From positions 1 through 64,000 of IMG/VR virus record IMGVR_UViG_3300028887_000080: a stretch of DNA of 64,000 bases; one strand, given 5' to 3'. The DNA is from a virus (taxonomy: Duplodnaviria; Caudoviricetes). The notes below the pieces were generated by a model that saw nothing but the letters and a program-made list of their open reading frames with translations, was not told the origin of the DNA and did no database searches. Position 1 is the stretch's first letter. Each line of letters starts with the position of its first letter. This document shows positions 46,696 to 54,806 of the stretch, piece after piece. The position numbers and the translations under genes were made by a program.

Positions 46696-46768
46696 TCGGG
46701 TAGAAAGGACTCGAACCTTCGACCCCTTGGTCCCAAACCAAGTGCGCTACCAACTGCGCCACTACCCG
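46696..46768 (-). tRNA. tRNA-Pro(UGG)
   Basis: cloverleaf; CTTGG-TTTGGGA-CCAAG. Confidence 0.93.
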
Positions 46769-46769
46769 T

Positions 46770-47069
46770 TTACACGTCCTTTGACATAAGGACGCCTATT
46801 TTTCCTTCCGTGAAAAGTCTTGCCTGTTCGAGCGTGCAAAAGATTGCGGGTCGTTCGTTGAACTCATTGTCTATGCAGATTGCGACTCTCGGTTCGGACG
46901 GTTCCTCCACATCCTCAAACCAACCGCTTCCGTTCATACAGACCTCGCTTTCATCATCGACCTCATATACGACATAGCGTTTTGCCGTTGAAATTTCAAT
47001 GCTTCCGTCAATGGCGGTTCCGAAAATATAGTTCACGCTTTCTTCTTTGATAATGTATTTGCTTTCCAT
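46770..47069 (-). CDS. acidic hypothetical protein within tRNA cluster
   Basis: ATG ORF between tRNAs. Confidence 0.6.
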   Translation of the reverse strand: MESKYIIKEESVNYIFGTAIDGSIEISTAKRYVVYEVDDESEVCMNGSGWFEDVEEPSEPRVAICIDNEFNERPAIFCTLEQARLFTEGKIGVLMSKDV

Positions 47070-47095
47070 ATTCTTGATTTTTGTTTTTTAATTTG

Positions 47096-47166
47096 TTGTC
47101 GGTCAGAGGGTCGAACTCCGATTAGCGGAACCAGAATCCGCTGTGCTGCCATTACACCAACCGACA
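47096..47166 (-). tRNA. tRNA-Gln(CUG)
   Basis: GCGGA-TTCTGGT-TCCGC. Confidence 0.9.
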
Positions 47167-47370
47167 TTACAAGACCATTTGAGACAATGCCGCCAACTCT
47201 TCCACGTCGTTTCCGATACGCTTAAACAAGGGGTTACATCAATGCTCACCCCCCAACGGACAGTACGTCCGCTGTATCCGACCCGTATCTCAAATCTTGG
47301 GGTGACGTCACTTCCCCGTGAGGACACGTTGTTCTCGGCATAGTCGTCATTGCCCACTTTGGTCATTGTG

Positions 47371-47442
47371 AGCGGTGGACGGGATTTGAACCCGCAACCC
47401 CGACCTTGGCAAGGTCGTATTCTGCCGTTGAACTACCACCGC
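47371..47442 (-). tRNA. tRNA-Gly(GCC)
   Basis: CGACC-TTGCCAA-GGTCG. Confidence 0.93.
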
Positions 47443-47589
47443 ATCGTCTCTTTTCATCAGACTTCCTTGCAATATCCGAATCTTGTACTACCGGGCATCA
47501 ATAAGCACATCCGTCCTATTGACATTTTGAGACACACCCGTTTAATTGTTGTCTATCGTGAAACAATCTAAAGACCGCCTATGTGTTTG

Positions 47590-47662
47590 CAAGACCATAG
47601 GATTTGAACCTCCATTTCATCATTGGACGGATGATATTCTACCAAATTGAACTATCGCCGCC
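47590..47662 (-). pseudogene. degenerate tRNA (Asp GUC-like loop, unpaired acceptor stem)
   Basis: D arm GTTC..GAAT, ATCAT-CCGTCCA-ATGAT, AGG-TTCAAAT-CCT; ends do not pair. Confidence 0.5.
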
Positions 47663-47688
47663 GGACGAAATTTTGGACATTTCGTTTG

Positions 47689-47759
47689 CAGGAGTGGAAG
47701 GACTCGAACCTCCGTCTACGGTTTTGGAGACCGTCGTTCTACCACTGAACCACACTCCT
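47689..47759 (-). tRNA. tRNA-Trp(CCA)
   Basis: ACGGT-CTCCAAA-ACCGT. Confidence 0.93.
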
Positions 47760-47785
47760 ATTCACCGTTGAACTACAGACTCAAG

Positions 47786-47868
47786 TGCGGACGGTGAGAG
47801 TCGAACTCACACGGGGATACCCCCACCACCCCCTCAAGGTGGCGCGCCTGCCATTTCGCCACGTCCGC
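47786..47868 (-). tRNA. tRNA-Leu(GAG)
   Basis: CCACC-TTGAGGG-GGTGG, long variable arm. Confidence 0.92.
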
Positions 47869-48187
47869 ATAATCTCATAGATGCAACCAATCACTTTCCG
47901 CTTTGGCGGTGTATTCGGACTACGGGTCGATTACCTCCGACGTCCTAATTACGTCCATTCTCTCTAACGGGCACTCGATGTCCATCAGTGAAGTTCTATT
48001 CGGGGCGTCGTCACGTTTCCCGCTACGGGTCTATATTGGTTGCATCCGTTTAAGAAATTCGGCAAACGAGTTTTGTATCGTCATCTTAAACTAAATGTTG
48101 ACACAACCGCATCGCATTCTGCGGTCGCTTTGAAACGCCAACAATGTGCCCACAACGAAGGGTCACAAATCTTGCCGTATCCCATTG

Positions 48188-48261
48188 TACCGGCAGGTGG
48201 ATTTGAACCACCGTCTCCGCCTTATGAGGGCGGCGCAAGAAACCGACTCCGCTATGCCGAT
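48188..48261 (-). tRNA. tRNA with CAU anticodon (elongator Met probable)
   Basis: CCGCC-CTCATAA-GGCGG. Confidence 0.85.
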
Positions 48262-48435
48262 GTTTTGAAAACAAAAACCAACAGGTGTTTTGATTAAACT
48301 ATGTATTCCTTTTTCTTGCTTATCGGGTCTCGATGACCCGTGGAACCCACCTCTGATTTGCCTTGCAGCGTCAGTGATTCTCTGTTGTCAATGCACGGAA
48401 CAGTTATGCCCTATCGCAATGTTTTTGTTTCCAAG

Positions 48436-48524
48436 CGGAGGGGGTAGGATTTGAACCCACGGAACCCTTGCGGGTTCGGCGGTTTTCAAGACCGCTGCAA
48501 TAAACCAGACTCTGCCACCCCTCC
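48436..48524 (-). tRNA. tRNA-Ser(UGA)
   Basis: GCGGT-CTTGAAA-ACCGC, long variable arm. Confidence 0.93.
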
Positions 48525-48587
48525 AAAAATACTCCTGCTTTAAGGCAAGTCAGGTGAACCTTTGATATATCATTGATATATCGCTTG

Positions 48588-48661
48588 TGGAGCGTGGGGG
48601 AGTCGAACCCCCGACCCCCTGCGTGCAAAGCAGGTGTTCTGGCCAACTGAACTAACGCCCC
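48588..48661 (-). tRNA. tRNA-Ala(UGC)
   Basis: CCTGC-TTTGCAC-GCAGG; G3:U70. Confidence 0.93.
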
Positions 48662-48774
48662 GTTTACAACCTTTACAGACCGTATGGTTACACACGGGAA
48701 GTATAACCGAACCATACGTCGGTGTGCGCTGAACCCGTATCCGCAAACGGCAGCAACCGTTCCTAATCGGACAT

Positions 48775-49160
48775 CACGGACTTTACTTTTTTATGCACCT
48801 CGCCTTTACAGCGGCACGCACACCATTTCACGCAAACCATAAAGATTGTGGACAGACTCTTTGGTGTTTATCGCTTTGTCTCCGACTTGCATCGTCGCAC
48901 TTGCGGTGTGCGAGACCGTGCCTTCTTTTTTATATATGTCATCCCTTCGGGCATTGGGCAGAAAGGAAAACATAATATATTTGAGAATTTCTCTCTCACG
49001 CGCTTGCGTGGTTCCTGTCGGAATGCTCCTTTCCAATACATTGCAGGGAACACGTCCCCGCGACCGACAGTGGTCGCCCATATATCATTTCAGGGCATTG
49101 CTCCGACAACGGGATGAAAAAGCAAGCGAATCTTATGTTCGCCAAAAAATAAAGTCCGTG
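48775..49160 (-). ncRNA. candidate ~385-nt structured RNA
   Basis: ends pair (CACGGACTTTA/TAAAGTCCGTG); nested stems TCATCCC/GGGATGA, TGTCGGA..AATGC/GCATTCCGACA. Confidence 0.55.
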
Positions 49161-53386: not shown

Positions 53387-53390
53387 CTTG

Positions 53391-53464
53391 CTGGGATGGA
53401 GGGACTTGAACCCCCGACTTACGGATTAACAGTCCGCCGTTCTGACCAACTGAACTACATCCCA
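53391..53464 (-). tRNA. tRNA-Asn(GUU)
   Basis: GCGGA-CTGTTAA-TCCGT. Confidence 0.93.
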
Positions 53465-53470
53465 TTGTTG

Positions 53471-53545
53471 TGGGCAAGGCAGGACTTGAACCTGCGACCC
53501 CCGCCTTATCAGAGCGGTGTTCTGACCAAACTGAACTACTTGCCC
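53471..53545 (-). tRNA. tRNA-Ile(GAU)
   Basis: CCGCT-CTGATAA-GGCGG. Confidence 0.93.
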
Positions 53546-53623
53546 GTGAAAATTGAGTTGGTTTATGGTCTAACTCAAGACTAACGACCGCTCTTATTAT
53601 GAAAAACAATAATATGGTTTTTG

Positions 53624-53707
53624 TGGTCGGGGCGGGAATTGAACCCGCACGTCCTTTCGGACAAAGGTTTTTGAGACCTTCGCGTCTACCAATTCCGCCA
53701 CCCGACC
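53624..53707 (-). tRNA. tRNA-Leu(CAA)
   Basis: AAGGT-CTCAAAA-ACCTT, long variable arm. Confidence 0.93.
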
Positions 53708-53750
53708 GCAGGCGTCAATGCGGCAAAGAGAGCGTAAAAAGGATTTATAG

Positions 53751-53831
53751 TGCGTCAGAAAGGACTCGAACCTTCACGCCTCTCGGCATCGGTTCCTAAA
53801 ACCGACGTGTCTGCCATTCCACCACAGACGC
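53751..53831 (-). tRNA. tRNA-Leu(UAG)
   Basis: TCGGT-TTTAGGA-ACCGA, long variable arm. Confidence 0.92.
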
Positions 53832-53836
53832 ATTTT

Positions 53837-53891
53837 ACAAGATACTTAAAATTTCCTATAATTTTTTTAATAGATTGCTGAATGTATCTTT
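53837..53891 (-). ncRNA. CAGCAA-family RNA (short, no anticodon loop)
   Basis: AAAGATAC-ATTCAGCAA-TCTAT..ATAGG..GTATCTTGT. Confidence 0.62.
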
Positions 53892-53899
53892 ATTTCTCG

Positions 53900-53977
53900 C
53901 GTACCGTACGGGACTCGAACCCGCATTTACCTCCGTCACGATGACAGCGTGCTTACCGCTATTACACCAAACGATAC
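53900..53977 (-). ncRNA. tRNA-like RNA (Asp-derived) with rearranged anticodon arm
   Basis: GTATCGT/ACGGTAC, intact D and T arms; CTGTCA-TCG-TGACGG. Confidence 0.55.
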
Positions 53978-54053
53978 TGACGGGAGATTGAACGCTAAAG
54001 AATGCGGTATCGCGATTACCGCGAAGCGTCTTGTACAACCTTTGTCCCGTTTG

Positions 54054-54125
54054 CGGTCACACTGGGAATCGAACCCAAATCTCGTGATAGACAGTCACGC
54101 ATCTTAACCTTTAGACGATGCGACC
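54054..54125 (-). tRNA. tRNA-Asp(GUC), U37 variant
   Basis: CGTGA-CTGTCTA-TCACG. Confidence 0.9.
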
Positions 54126-54451
54126 GTTTGTCGGTTTATGTCCGCGCCTCTCCACGACGCTTCCAATCTTTTGCATAATTTCAGCGATTTATACACGCAG
54201 TTCCGACTACTTTGCGTGTGCCCCGTAAAAATGTGGAACATACATCTACGGACATAACTCCCCGCAGCGGAGCAGGCGTTTTTTCACGCAACGCCCCTTG
54301 CGTACCATTACGGCGGTATTGGAGACGCCGCAAGGAATTTGACCGTTTTTATGGAGACCGCCACCTGACAGGCGGTTTGTCCAATTTCTTTTTAGAATGC
54401 GGATTTCCGATAACCTTGCATTCCATTTTAAGCGTTTTTAACTTGTCAGGA

Positions 54452-54492
54452 TTTTTGGCGCGTGTTACGCCGTTTTTGGCGCGTGTTACGCC
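54452..54492. repeat. 20-bp direct tandem repeat
   Basis: TTTTTGGCGCGTGTTACGCC x2 separated by 1 nt. Confidence 0.85.
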
Positions 54493-54542
54493 CACGCCTT
54501 ACGACCGCGACGCGAACTTATAAGAACGCACCGGGGGATTTG

Positions 54543-54615
54543 AGCCGCAGGGGAGACTTGAACTCCCAACTTTCGGTTTACAAAACCGATACTCTACCAG
54601 TTGAGTTACAGCGGC
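54543..54615 (-). tRNA. tRNA-Thr(UGU)
   Basis: TCGGT-TTTGTAA-ACCGA. Confidence 0.88.
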
Positions 54616-54727
54616 ATTTGAAGGGGTGGATGCTCACTGATGGTGGGACGCCGCTGAATTTTGTGCGTATATGCCCGACCTGTTCGTTTTACATACACCC
54701 CTTTTAGGTGTTTGCTTTCTGCCAATA

Positions 54728-54806
54728 TGTCAAAGAACTTTCGTTCGTCGGCGGCGTTAAGACCGCCTGCATTTGAATATAATAAAAAAAATCAACTTTT
54801 TTACAG
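54728..54806 (-). promoter_or_regulatory. tRNA-operon promoter with boxB-like hairpin and boxA-like GTTCTTTGACA
   Basis: GTAAAAAA..TTTTTATTATATTCAA, hairpin GGCGG..CCGCC, then GTTCTTTGACA. Confidence 0.65.

Follow-up and report, generated by a model that had tools for sequence, protein, structure and literature searches.

Do the long spacers of a phage tRNA array encode RNAs of their own? The question is raised by a giant uncultured phage with such an array in the 64,000-nt stretch analysed here (the window; positions 1 to 64,000 of IMG/VR record IMGVR_UViG_3300028887_000080). A sequence-only reading had described the locus as an 8-kb RNA operon whose spacers, closed by terminal helices, are released by tRNA processing as a panel of independent structured RNAs.

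Content and transcription of the array

The combined ARAGORN and Rfam calls place 26 canonical tRNAs on the minus strand between 46695 and 54615. The operon therefore stands as a tRNA array, but two ORFs and promoter-like tandem repeats are also present. The main features other than canonical tRNAs are:

46695-54615, minus strand: tRNA array with non-canonical tRNA-like genes, two ORFs and long spacers (ARAGORN, Rfam)
46131-46643, minus strand: 2H phosphoesterase gene (2'-5' RNA ligase/Acb1-like) directly downstream of the array (Pfam)
46770-47069: ORF of 99 aa within the array
50153-50318, minus strand: tRNA-like RNA that has a large insertion, a T arm and an 8-bp stem resembling an acceptor (low-threshold ARAGORN, sequence)
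50560-50938, minus strand: three A/T-rich tandem repeats of ~107 nt each, promoter-like and unstructured (self-repeats, fold z = +0.5)
51433-51546, minus strand: tRNA-like gene with the anticodon arm extended by ~50 nt (Rfam 44 bits, sequence)
52043-52198, minus strand: class II tRNA-Tyr(GUA)-like gene (Rfam 47 bits, sequence)
52350-53189, minus strand: DUF559/Vsr-like endonuclease ORF of 279 aa inside the array, probably a homing endonuclease (Pfam)

Rfam alone added 50319-50397 (marginal), 51433-51546 and 52043-52198 to the canonical set, the last two with long anticodon-arm insertions. The ~50-nt extension of 51433-51546 opens with an AGUA/GAA (S-turn) motif. In the tRNA-Tyr(GUA)-like gene, which is 98% identical in the near relative L012 (itself 93% identical) and 92.5% identical in L025, an insertion of 71-76 nt sits immediately 3' of the anticodon. 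The tRNA-like RNA 50153-50318 is 77-81% conserved and is located after tRNA-Val in L025. The ~107-nt repeat has a further copy at 16215-16300 and recurs upstream of other genes, and the block has a homologue upstream of tRNA-Met in L021/L025. Relatives of the 2H phosphoesterase gene adjoin tRNA arrays in L005-L007.

Strong minus-strand terminators lie on both sides of the array (55166-55183 and 45973-45991) and none comparable was found inside it on that strand, an arrangement that fits long transcripts, possibly more than one. Because the array tRNAs lack an encoded CCA and 0-5 nt separate the closing helices of the spacers from tRNA ends, cleavage by RNase Z and RNase P is a mechanistically reasonable route of release.

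Closing helices and structure in the spacers

For each spacer, the energy of the duplex formed by its first and last 22 nt was compared with that in 1500 random genomic windows. The fraction of random windows that matched the closing helix was 0.006 for 47167-47369, <0.001 for the core of 48770-49166 (17 bp), 0.011 for 49471-49898, 0.010 for 48262-48434, 0.03 for 53310-53389 and 0.024 for 53978-54052; terminal helices are thus enriched, with 6 of about 20 spacers at a fraction <0.035. Five spacers had been singled out for such helices: those of 47169-47369, 48775-49160 and 49476-49898 go beyond chance, while those of 49993-50152 (9 bp, A/U-rich) and 50400-50474 (8 bp) exist but individually do not (~0.10). 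In line with the earlier reading, none of the five holds a conserved ORF; for 49471-49898, the longest open frame changes its frame, strand and position from one homologue to another. Most long spacers have minus-strand fold z-scores of -2 to -4. Infernal searches against Rfam confirmed the tRNAs and returned no family match in any spacer, and the 124-kb record holds no repeats of spacers elsewhere, except for the copy of the repeat block at 16215-16300. The individual spacers, other than 49471-49898, are:

47167-47369, minus strand: stem-closed spacer, 203 nt (helix test, L012 comparison)
47869-48050, minus strand: domain B of the 318-nt spacer 47869-48186, 13-bp closing helix (kept in L012 and L019)
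48051-48186, minus strand: domain A of the same spacer, separately closed (present in L019, absent from L012)
48262-48434, minus strand: spacer with a long A/U-rich terminal helix, 173 nt (helix test, fold z = -3.0)
48775-49160, minus strand: module of 386 nt, its closing helix long-range, perfect and 17 bp long (helix test, L012 comparison)
49988-50152, minus strand: spacer part, 165 nt, 9-bp A/U-rich closing helix, a weak case (fraction 0.10)
50398-50484, minus strand: spacer, 87 nt, 8-bp closing helix, likewise weak (fraction 0.10)
51547-51889, minus strand: 343-nt spacer with evidence of conserved RNA structure (comparison with L012)

Comparative folding across related phages gave compensatory changes in 49471-49898 and 51547-51889. 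In 51547-51889, 16 compensatory pairs separate the window from L012, and one hairpin has six consecutive double changes flanking a conserved CCGCA loop. The module 48775-49160 is 97.8% identical in L012, above most spacers, and a search for distant relatives found none; in 47167-47369 one hairpin region holds 16 of the 21 differences from L012. Some array spacers are varied or missing in L012, in which 47869-48186 is missing precisely its first closed domain and 47443-47687 is almost entirely absent; 49988-50152 has no homologue in L025. At least two spacers are under selection for RNA structure, with strong support for 49471-49898 and moderate support for 51547-51889. Several more are discrete modules, closed by a stem and gained or lost as units, and 47167-47369, 47869-48186, 48262-48434 and 48662-49166, for which no distant relatives were found, are plausible structured modules. 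The notion of independent structured RNAs therefore holds for part of the spacers, and that of a uniform panel was abandoned, since the spacers include a promoter-like repeat, ORFs, non-canonical tRNA-like genes and pieces that vary between relatives. None of the remaining long spacers is a copy of 49471-49898; they are distinct structured modules restricted to particular lineages, tRNA-like RNAs or promoter repeats.

A conserved RNA between tRNA-Ser and tRNA-His

Homology and covariation show that 49471-49898 encodes a predicted discrete, conserved RNA. It is the long form of a family of phage RNAs that imitate two elements of 23S rRNA, the GTPase-associated centre (GAC) and the sarcin-ricin loop (SRL). 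Its parts, in 5' to 3' order of the RNA, are:

49471-49898, minus strand: RNA of ~425 nt in the 428-nt spacer between tRNA-Ser(GCU) and tRNA-His (homologues, covariation, 23S match)
49889-49898, minus strand: closing helix, 5' strand AAGUGAUUGA, H42-like stem (pairs with 49476-49485, covaries in homologues)
49853-49888, minus strand: 5' GAC module, H43-like hairpin, then AUC...UAAAGAGUU (= E. coli 23S 1055-1088)
49624-49635, minus strand: sarcin-ricin dodecamer AGUACGAGAGGA, capping a covarying stem (BLAST to 23S 2654-2665)
49487-49499, minus strand: 3' GAC module, H44-like hairpin GGUGUAACAACAC (GUAAYA-type hexaloop like 23S 1093-1098)
49476-49485, minus strand: closing helix, 3' strand UCAAUCACUU, 5 nt upstream of tRNA-His (covariation)

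Full-length homologues occur in L012 (91% identity), L021/L025 (72.6%) and L024 (62.6%). In L021/L025 and L024 they extend from closing helix to closing helix, and in L024 the homologue exactly occupies the interval from tRNA-Met to tRNA-Gln. In L021/L025 the 776-aa protein next to the RNA is just 43-48% identical, compared to the 72.6% of the RNA. In the alignment 93% of cells are paired, and 31 of the 92 predicted pairs show double (compensatory) changes, against 15.9±2.2 in shuffled alignments (0 of 500 reach 31) and 3-8 in slid controls.

Could the element be a neutral relic, a piece of rRNA taken up by the phage, or else a mobile, MITE-like insertion with terminal inverted repeats that only look like a helix? 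The array is indeed a mosaic with cassettes gained and lost, but the terminal repeats covary rather than stay conserved, the RNA is not repeated elsewhere in the 124-kb record and no flanking direct repeats were seen in the sequence. Since the compensatory changes and the base-triple rule described below show selection on the RNA fold, we disfavour such an origin and give it next to no credence.

Reconstruction of the GTPase-associated centre

Alignment with 23S rRNA shows that the two ends of the predicted RNA would join to rebuild the GAC, the site of uL11. H42 has its counterpart in the closing helix, H43 and the UUUAAAGA junction in the 5' module, and the H44 hexaloop hairpin in the 3' module. 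When the family profile was searched against E. coli 23S with nhmmer, the sole match was 1055-1088; the Rfam LSU model aligns to family members at positions 1096-1145 (E = 0.0015), and the 5' module of one member gives a 94% match to annotated 23S genes. At the base triple 1072.(1092-1099), all 45 members have the same base at positions 1072 and 1092: 18 combine U with U-A, 18 combine C with C-G and nine combine U with U-G. This covariation matches the C1072/C1092-G1099 tertiary contact reported for the GAC of E. coli (PMC2952862). All 45 also have a Watson-Crick pair at 1058:1080, with four pair types among them. The closing helix is maintained across 39 different strand sequences, and the duplex of a member's own strands averages -10.9 kcal/mol, compared to -3.3 for cross-member pairings.

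The likeness to the bacterial GAC (H42-H44, E. coli 1051-1108; uL11/thiostrepton domain) thus comprises the H43 hairpin and junction, the GUAAYA hexaloop of H44, a closing helix replacing H42, the 1058:1080 pair and the covariation at 1072.(1092-1099). Unlike the 23S domain, however, the phage RNA is a free-standing gene outside any rRNA, with the 58-nt domain split by an insert of 130-330 nt between about 1088 and 1090. Positions 1067-1070, (nearly) invariant in bacterial rRNA, vary across the family, and the window RNA's own H43 loop has diverged (CUGAUAGUG in place of UUAGAAGCA, with G at the A1067 position), so factor or thiostrepton contacts may not be preserved.

The sarcin-ricin hairpin of the long forms

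Comparison of the long forms shows that the insert between the GAC halves displays a predicted sarcin-ricin-loop hairpin. In the window, 49624-49635 is the exact universal dodecamer (E. coli 23S 2654-2665), the 12-mer described in PMC12737465. Among the matches listed, the hairpin is found at the same position in 18 of 18 long forms and in no shorter form. With H95 (E. coli 2646-2674) the window RNA shares the exact AGUACGAGAGGA at a helix tip, and the AGUA/GA S-turn is common to all phage long forms; in contrast, the flanking stem is unrelated in sequence, the hairpin is missing from short forms and the tetraloop differs among members (GAGA, GGGA, AAGA), so an A2660-dependent role is not universal in the family.

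RelA-dependent stringent signalling needs uL11, and an RNA that sequesters host uL11 or uL10-bL12 could remodel ribosomes or blunt this signalling. The best-conserved features are those that uL11 needs, the H43 stem with 1058:1080 and the GAC tertiary fold with the 1071/1072 triples, a fold that its binding requires (PMC6239185). Short forms carry the GAC alone, which makes the uL11 site the common denominator of the family. However, uL11 binding requires neither the long insert nor the SRL hairpin, and we regard such a sponge as possible but unlikely. No uL11 or bL12 gene was found in the 124-kb record, about 39% of the genome.

Distribution of the family

A search with motif AGCCATCNNNTAARGAGTT found at least 117 IMG/VR loci; among the matches listed, the profile confirmed 18 long forms and many shorter ones, and same-strand tRNAs lie within 5 kb in 40 of 46 unique members, opposite-strand tRNAs in none of the 46. 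The next gene is a tRNA in most members, often 0-17 nt away. These data show that the GAC-mimic RNA family is widespread, mostly in phage tRNA arrays. It is not in Rfam 15 and is unannotated in cultured jumbo phages (XacN1, GAP32, pf16 and others), and we found no published description of a GAC/SRL-mimicking phage RNA family.

In GAP32 and fHe-Yen9-04 the RNA fills an ordinary gap between genes, directly 5' of a CDS and away from tRNAs, and therefore tRNA-linked excision is not general. In XacN1, also away from tRNAs, 22 nt separate the family RNA from the end of a preceding '2'-5' RNA ligase' gene. The spacers might merely insulate tRNAs from misfolding, or guide or pace their processing, with no role after excision, as the tRNA-abutting helices over many spacers and the dispensability of several spacers in a close relative would suggest. 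Insulation could do without an invariant core, the covariation of an rRNA base triple or an exact SRL copy in an RNA of 425 nt, and it would not explain the members in GAP32, fHe-Yen9-04 and XacN1; we hold it to be very unlikely. In GAP32 and fHe-Yen9-04 the element stops a few nt short of the ribosome-binding site of the next CDS and may have a cis-regulatory role. As a general explanation, a leader that binds a ribosomal protein and controls the downstream gene, like the rRNA-mimicking leaders of r-protein operons, seems to us more improbable still, because the next gene is a tRNA in the window and downstream genes are not conserved.

Comparison with known RNAs

Phages and prophages encode the large ornate RNAs GOLLD and ROOL, often close to tRNA islands (PMC12286853). 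Like these two RNAs, the window element is a large, highly structured, protein-free-looking phage RNA inside a tRNA cluster, but it is smaller and has recognisable rRNA modules, and neither the ROOL model nor any Rfam covariance model, GOLLD included, matches 49471-49898. The T4 species 1 and species 2 RNAs (rnaC, rnaD) are likewise small and stable and come from a phage tRNA cluster, which also contains the homing endonuclease segB and has the 2H-type 'RNA ligase' gene 57B nearby, as with the window array. They are released by tRNA-precursor processing. The T4 RNAs are only 119-139 nt long, however, the 3' end of rnaC is tRNA-like, and neither shares sequence or motif similarity with 49471-49898. 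Leaders of r-protein operons such as the L10 leader share with the window RNA the principle of imitating a protein's natural RNA ligand, but they are cis-acting mRNA segments of cellular operons, and the Rfam search of 49471-49898 gave no L10-leader match. The same principle applies to the phage decoy pseudo-ToxI, which imitates an antitoxin RNA and not rRNA (PMC3475682).

Possible function

What could a phage gain from such an RNA? We favour, with moderate confidence, the explanation that a discrete GAC/SRL-mimic RNA is co-transcribed, excised and acts off the ribosome as an imitation of its factor site. The 49471-49898 RNA would be transcribed together with the tRNAs and cut out by host tRNA-trimming enzymes, RNase Z or other 3' trimming upstream and RNase P downstream, after which its paired ends would shield it against exonucleases. 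The GAC and the SRL together form the factor-binding site of the ribosome, and the free RNA would imitate the site bound by uL11 and translational GTPases. In the mechanism that we prefer it would titrate a protein that otherwise acts on this site, most likely an enzyme of a host defence or a competitor, one that cuts or modifies H44 or the SRL; uL11 (hence RelA signalling) or a translation factor would be alternative targets. Toxins that target H44 or the SRL include Tre23, which ADP-ribosylates 1095-1098, VapC-mt20/26 and ricin (PMC8661411). Because the GAC and SRL are both factor site and toxin target, a role of this phage RNA as a decoy is plausible.

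Organization of the tRNA array

The window forms the first 64 kb of a 124-kb record with a completeness of ~39% according to CheckV, and because it encodes a 1170-aa tail-sheath protein, the phage is a very large myovirus. ARAGORN and Rfam concordantly place 26 canonical tRNAs on the minus strand at 46695-54615. Rfam adds tRNA calls at 50319-50397 (marginal) and at 51433-51546 and 52043-52198, both with long anticodon-arm insertions. Open reading frames of 99 aa and 279 aa, the latter a DUF559/Vsr-type endonuclease, lie within the array, and one gene adjoins it:

46131-46643, minus strand, 2H phosphoesterase ("2'-5' RNA ligase"/Acb1-like), directly downstream of the array

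Strong terminator-like hairpins flank the array on the minus strand (55166-55183 upstream and 45973-45991 downstream), and none of comparable strength was found inside it. No array tRNA has a clearly encoded CCA at its 3' end; in most of them CAA or CA-purine comes right after the discriminator base, and this recurrent trailer is a possible signal for processing. A megablast search of the whole array against cultured phages gave matches confined to tRNA-Ser, and a search of the 124-kb record revealed neither uL11 nor bL12.

Terminal helices of the spacers

The sequence-only reading had described the spacers between these tRNAs as bounded by terminal helices and had proposed that tRNA processing releases them as independent structured RNAs. 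For each spacer, we compared the best duplex that its first 22 nt can form with its last 22 nt with those of 1500 random windows of the same genome.

Closing helices of spacers in the minus-strand array (fraction of random windows as good)
47167-47369, spacer, 0.006
48262-48434, spacer, 0.010
48770-49166, spacer core with a perfect 17-bp helix, <0.001
49471-49898, spacer, 0.011
53310-53389, spacer, 0.03
53978-54052, spacer, 0.024

The terminal helices are real and enriched, but those at 49993-50152 and 50400-50474, although present, are individually unconvincing, with a random-window fraction of ~0.10 each. Folded as a whole on the transcribed strand, most long spacers have z-scores of -2 to -4. 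Overall, the observation is confirmed in part, and the interpretation likewise has partial support.

A conserved structured RNA at 49471-49898

When all spacers were used as queries in BLAST and nhmmer searches, full-length homologues in more distant arrays were found for one of them only:

49471-49898, minus strand, ~425-nt RNA between tRNA-Ser(GCU) and tRNA-His

Its homologue in four further phage loci (L021, L022, L023 and L025) is 72.6% identical, while the neighbouring protein there is 43-48% identical. In the IMG/VR contig L024 the homologue is 62.6% identical and fills the gap between tRNA-Met and tRNA-Gln exactly. The consensus structure from a four-sequence alignment has 92 pairs, with 93% of cells paired. 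Both-sided changes occur in 31 pairs, compared to 15.9 ± 2.2 in shuffled controls (0 of 500 reached 31) and 3-8 with slid partners. The covarying pairs lie in the peripheral helices and the terminal helix, and three long-range core helices are invariant. Comparative folding across related phages, which had been suggested as a check, therefore shows a fold kept by compensatory changes. The closing helix begins 1 nt after tRNA-Ser and stops 5 nt short of tRNA-His.

The spacer had been said to hold no credible open reading frame, and indeed none is conserved among the homologues. The proposed comparison with Rfam, at gathering and permissive thresholds, returned tRNAs only over the window and no family on 49471-49898. 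RNase P, tmRNA, SRP RNA, group I and group II introns, retrons and omega-RNA were rejected as candidates, as no model matches and their defining motifs or partner genes are absent. A MITE or other transposable element was likewise rejected, because the ends covary instead of being conserved and the element is single copy in the 124-kb record; no flanking direct repeat was seen in the surrounding sequence.

Mimicry of the ribosomal factor-docking site

In a permissive Rfam scan the 5' module of a short member of this RNA family aligned to positions 1096-1145 of the bacterial LSU rRNA model, which correspond to the GTPase-associated centre (GAC; H42-H44 of 23S rRNA, E. coli numbering). Read directly, E. 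coli 23S 1051-1108 is GCCAGGAUGUUGGCUUAGAAGCAGCCAUCAUUUAAAGAAAGCGUAAUAGCUCACUGGU. The family profile matches E. coli 23S at 1055-1088 only, and the 5' module of one member is 94% identical to annotated 23S genes. This module consists of the H43 hairpin and the junction UUUAAAGA, the E. coli counterpart of both being GGAUGUUGGCUUAGAAGCAGCCAUCAUUUAAAGA; the H43 copy of the window aligns but has diverged in the loop. H44 corresponds to the 3' module, GGYGUAAMARCAC, a hairpin with a GUAAUA-type hexaloop closed by the 1092-1099 pair. The 3' module is present in 45 of 46 members among the matches listed and lies at 49487-49499 in the window. The place of H42 is occupied by the closing helix, for which own-member duplexes have -10.9 kcal/mol vs. 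-3.3 kcal/mol for cross-member duplexes, over 39 distinct strand sequences.

The decisive test for the identity of the GAC is the tertiary base triple 1072.(1092-1099), which in the ribosome is formed by C1072 with the pair C1092-G1099 (PMC2952862). Among the matches listed, base 1072 equals base 1092 in all 45 members, with no forbidden combination, in RNAs that place the equivalents of 1072 and 1092-1099 100-400 nt apart.

Combinations at 1072.(1092-1099) among the matches listed
U with U-A, 18 members
C with C-G, 18 members
U with U-G, 9 members

The 1058:1080 pair is always Watson-Crick in the members among the matches listed and is realized by four pair types. The RNA of the window is a stand-alone gene between tRNAs, and in the family the two halves of the GAC are split by a 130-330-nt insert instead of forming the contiguous ~58-nt junction of a 23S gene; this RNA is therefore a mimic and not an rRNA.

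The second half of the docking site resides in the insert of the long forms. At 49624-49635 (minus strand) the sequence AGUACGAGAGGA is the exact universal dodecamer of the sarcin-ricin loop (SRL; H95), with a bulged-G S-turn and a GNRA-type tetraloop on a helix; the SRL 12-mer has been described (PMC12737465). The stem beneath it (helix 12) covaries. A hairpin of the AGUAC....GGA type occupies the same insert position in 18 of 18 long forms among the matches listed and was found in none of the shorter forms. BLAST of all spacers against E. coli 23S returned the SRL 12-mer only. GAC and SRL together constitute the binding site of translational GTPases (PMC8661411), and it is the fold of this factor-docking site that the 49471-49898 RNA mimics.

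Distribution of the GAC-mimic family

A partial match in the phage locus L005 gave the first hint of shorter versions of the RNA. At least 117 IMG/VR loci have the common 5' motif AGCCATCNNNTAARGAGTT, and among the matches listed the profile confirms 18 long forms (about 400-490 nt) along with many shorter ones (166-350 nt), which share with the long forms the 5' and 3' modules only. We define the family by two GAC modules, one 5' and one 3', which together with a covarying closing helix enclose a variable insert, the whole being encoded in co-orientation with tRNAs; 49471-49898 fits this definition. Same-strand tRNAs lie within 5 kb in 40 of 46 unique members and opposite-strand tRNAs in 0 of 46 (among the matches listed), and many members abut a tRNA. 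At the gathering threshold Rfam labelled tRNAs and one tmRNA in 15 family loci, and nothing else.

Unannotated copies are present in the cultured phages XacN1, XaC1, RSP15, vB_AbaM_ME3, pf16, Astolliot, GAP32, fHe-Yen9-04 and others, the carriers being phages of Xanthomonas, Pseudomonas, Cronobacter, Yersinia, Acinetobacter and Ralstonia. The copies of GAP32 and fHe-Yen9-04 each sit in an ordinary intergenic gap, which argues against tRNA-linked excision as a general feature. BLAST of the long form against cultured phages gave no useful match, and scans with its core patterns gave zero matches in JGI metagenomes and GTDB genomes.

T4 is absent from the BLAST matches of the family. Its rnaC and rnaD are also structured RNAs of a phage tRNA cluster, but the T4 sequences lack every motif of the GAC-mimic family. 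GOLLD and ROOL RNAs are located near tRNA islands (PMC12286853). The ROOL model had no match at E≤10 across the whole record, with control genomes giving no match either, and the full Rfam scans listed neither ROOL nor GOLLD. No paper on a phage copy of GAC or SRL was found in the open-access literature, and the phage RNAs that mimic the factor-binding site of the ribosome, 49471-49898 being one of the long forms, apparently make up an undescribed family.

Three other phages have a relative of the 2H phosphoesterase next to a tRNA array, and genes of this kind lie in the phage loci L146 (828-1478) and L005 (10001-10384). In XacN1 a gene of this type ends 22 nt before the GAC-mimic RNA, and in T4 the 2H-type gene 57B is near the tRNA cluster. 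Such a gene is close to a family RNA in about 5 of about 60 short loci, so that the linkage is weak, if suggestive.

tRNA-like genes of the array

Five further elements of the array resemble tRNAs:

50153-50318, minus strand, tRNA-like element with acceptor-like stem, T arm and big insert; missed by ARAGORN
50319-50397, minus strand, tRNA-like gene, 29 bits, 100% conserved in the near relative L012 and 80% in L024; missed by ARAGORN
51433-51546, minus strand, tRNA-shaped gene, Rfam 44 bits, anticodon arm lengthened by ~50 nt
52043-52198, minus strand, class II tRNA-Tyr(GUA)-like gene, 71-76-nt insertion right after the anticodon with an 8-bp hairpin
52199-52291, minus strand, tRNA-like element with CUGCAA loop, 84% conserved in L021/L025; missed by ARAGORN

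The two strands of the arm extension of 51433-51546 start with AGUA and GAA, respectively, which is an S-turn (sarcin-ricin-type) motif. The gene at 52043-52198 is conserved at 98% in L012 and 92.5% in the distant L025, and its insertion is therefore maintained; a group I intron was rejected, as the insertion is far too short. Similar "tRNAs" of 120-150 nt also occur in the arrays of five other phage loci (L040, L069, L129, G001 and G005). The element at 52199-52291 is possibly Cys-like. It probably set off the "tmRNA" that ARAGORN called at 52210-52592 (minus strand; tag GQAYC*), a call that we regard as a false positive: it overlaps both the endonuclease ORF and tRNA-Lys, and its Rfam score is only 16 bits.

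Heterogeneity and mosaicism of the other spacers

Near relatives came from ENA and Logan metagenome assemblies, one of them labelled bovine. L012 (93% identical) was reached via a 776-aa neighbour protein, which gave no useful relatives in a search of IMG/VR. Its array is mosaic with respect to the window, some tRNAs being exchanged. Spacer 47443-47687 is almost entirely missing in L012, as are the first 136 nt of spacer 47869-48186. The 136-nt gap coincides with the first of two separately closed predicted domains and a third relative, L019, retains both, so the stem-closed modules behave as cassettes. Both ends of spacer 54126-54541 (minus strand) are 92-98% conserved in L012 (12968-13362), where ~190 nt of the middle part are unrelated sequence; its 5' part contains two tandem copies of GGCGUAACACGCGCCAAAAA.

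Spacer 51547-51889 is 69% identical to L012 and keeps its hairpins through 16 double changes, six of them consecutive around a conserved CCGCA loop, and is likely a structured RNA. At 97.8% identity, spacer 48662-49166 is too similar to L012 to be informative for such a test. A suspected common motif, CGCAAGUGC...GUCGGAGACA, had made it a candidate paralogue of 49471-49898; BLAST and the family profile show no link, and the motif had no match in IMG/VR. Relatives of 48662-49166 and 51547-51889 were also sought by pattern scans; one scan was empty and the other gave 1 chance match. The spacers 47167-47369, 47869-48186, 48262-48434 and 48775-49160 are plausible stem-closed modules with no relatives known, while 49988-50152 and 50398-50484 are weak candidates.

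Spacer 50560-50938 is A/T-rich and unstructured (z = +0.5) and consists of three ~107-nt tandem repeats. The repeat also precedes another gene (16215-16300) and, in a distant relative, tRNA-Met, and the spacer looks like a promoter region. The proposal of independent structured RNAs is supported by 49471-49898 as a covarying family RNA and gains from the double changes in 51547-51889, but the spacers are heterogeneous and this one is promoter-like. A palindromic motif, GATATATCAATGATATATC, lies in the array before tRNA-Ser (48545-48582, minus strand) and at >15 other intergenic sites of the 124-kb record, e.g. 254, 11363, 22687, 26847, 35779, 41652, 44504 and 63542; it probably serves the phage as a regulatory site or is associated with promoters.

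Proposed function

Bacterial tRNA maturation involves endonucleolytic 3' trimming of CCA-less precursors and cleavage by RNase P, and paired RNA ends resist exonucleases. Trimming of the flanking CCA-less tRNA and an RNase P cut would free the 49471-49898 RNA with paired ends, and the freed RNA would display the uL11 site and the SRL off the ribosome. We favour a role as a decoy for enzymes directed at the H44/SRL site: Tre23 attacks H44 at 1095-1098, and VapC-mt20/26 and ricin attack the SRL (PMC8661411). The main alternatives are that the RNA acts as a sponge for uL11/RelA, uL11 being known to recognise the tertiary fold of the GAC (PMC6239185), which is conserved in the family, or that it binds a translation factor. 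Among the factor and antibiotic contact bases A1067, A1070 and A1095, A1095/A1096 are mostly kept and 1067-1070 vary (the window has G at 1067); this variation, the diverged H43 loop of the window and an SRL tetraloop that varies across the long forms call for caution, and some site contacts may not be preserved.

Beyond the favoured decoy role, we put forward tentatively, and with more doubt than confidence, a "ribosome in pieces", in which a free RNA bearing both halves of the docking site (uL11/H43-H44 and SRL) would soak up defence or competitor enzymes, uL11/RelA or translational GTPases. With the phage tRNAs, the S-turn tRNA-shaped RNA at 51433-51546 and the 2H RNA-repair-type enzyme, the array might then act as a translation-protection island in addition to supplying codons.

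The usual view of phage tRNA clusters is that they serve codon supply and, in newer work, that they replace tRNAs which host defences destroy. A conserved and widespread phage RNA with a rebuilt factor-binding site, including its base triple and an exact SRL, points to a second layer in these clusters: phages may imitate rRNA itself, diverting proteins that bind or attack the factor site. Since the family is present in cultured phages, the idea is directly testable. For RNA biology, the GAC-mimic RNA is a natural, autonomously folding GAC-plus-SRL construct, and the "empty" spacers of phage tRNA arrays merit annotation.
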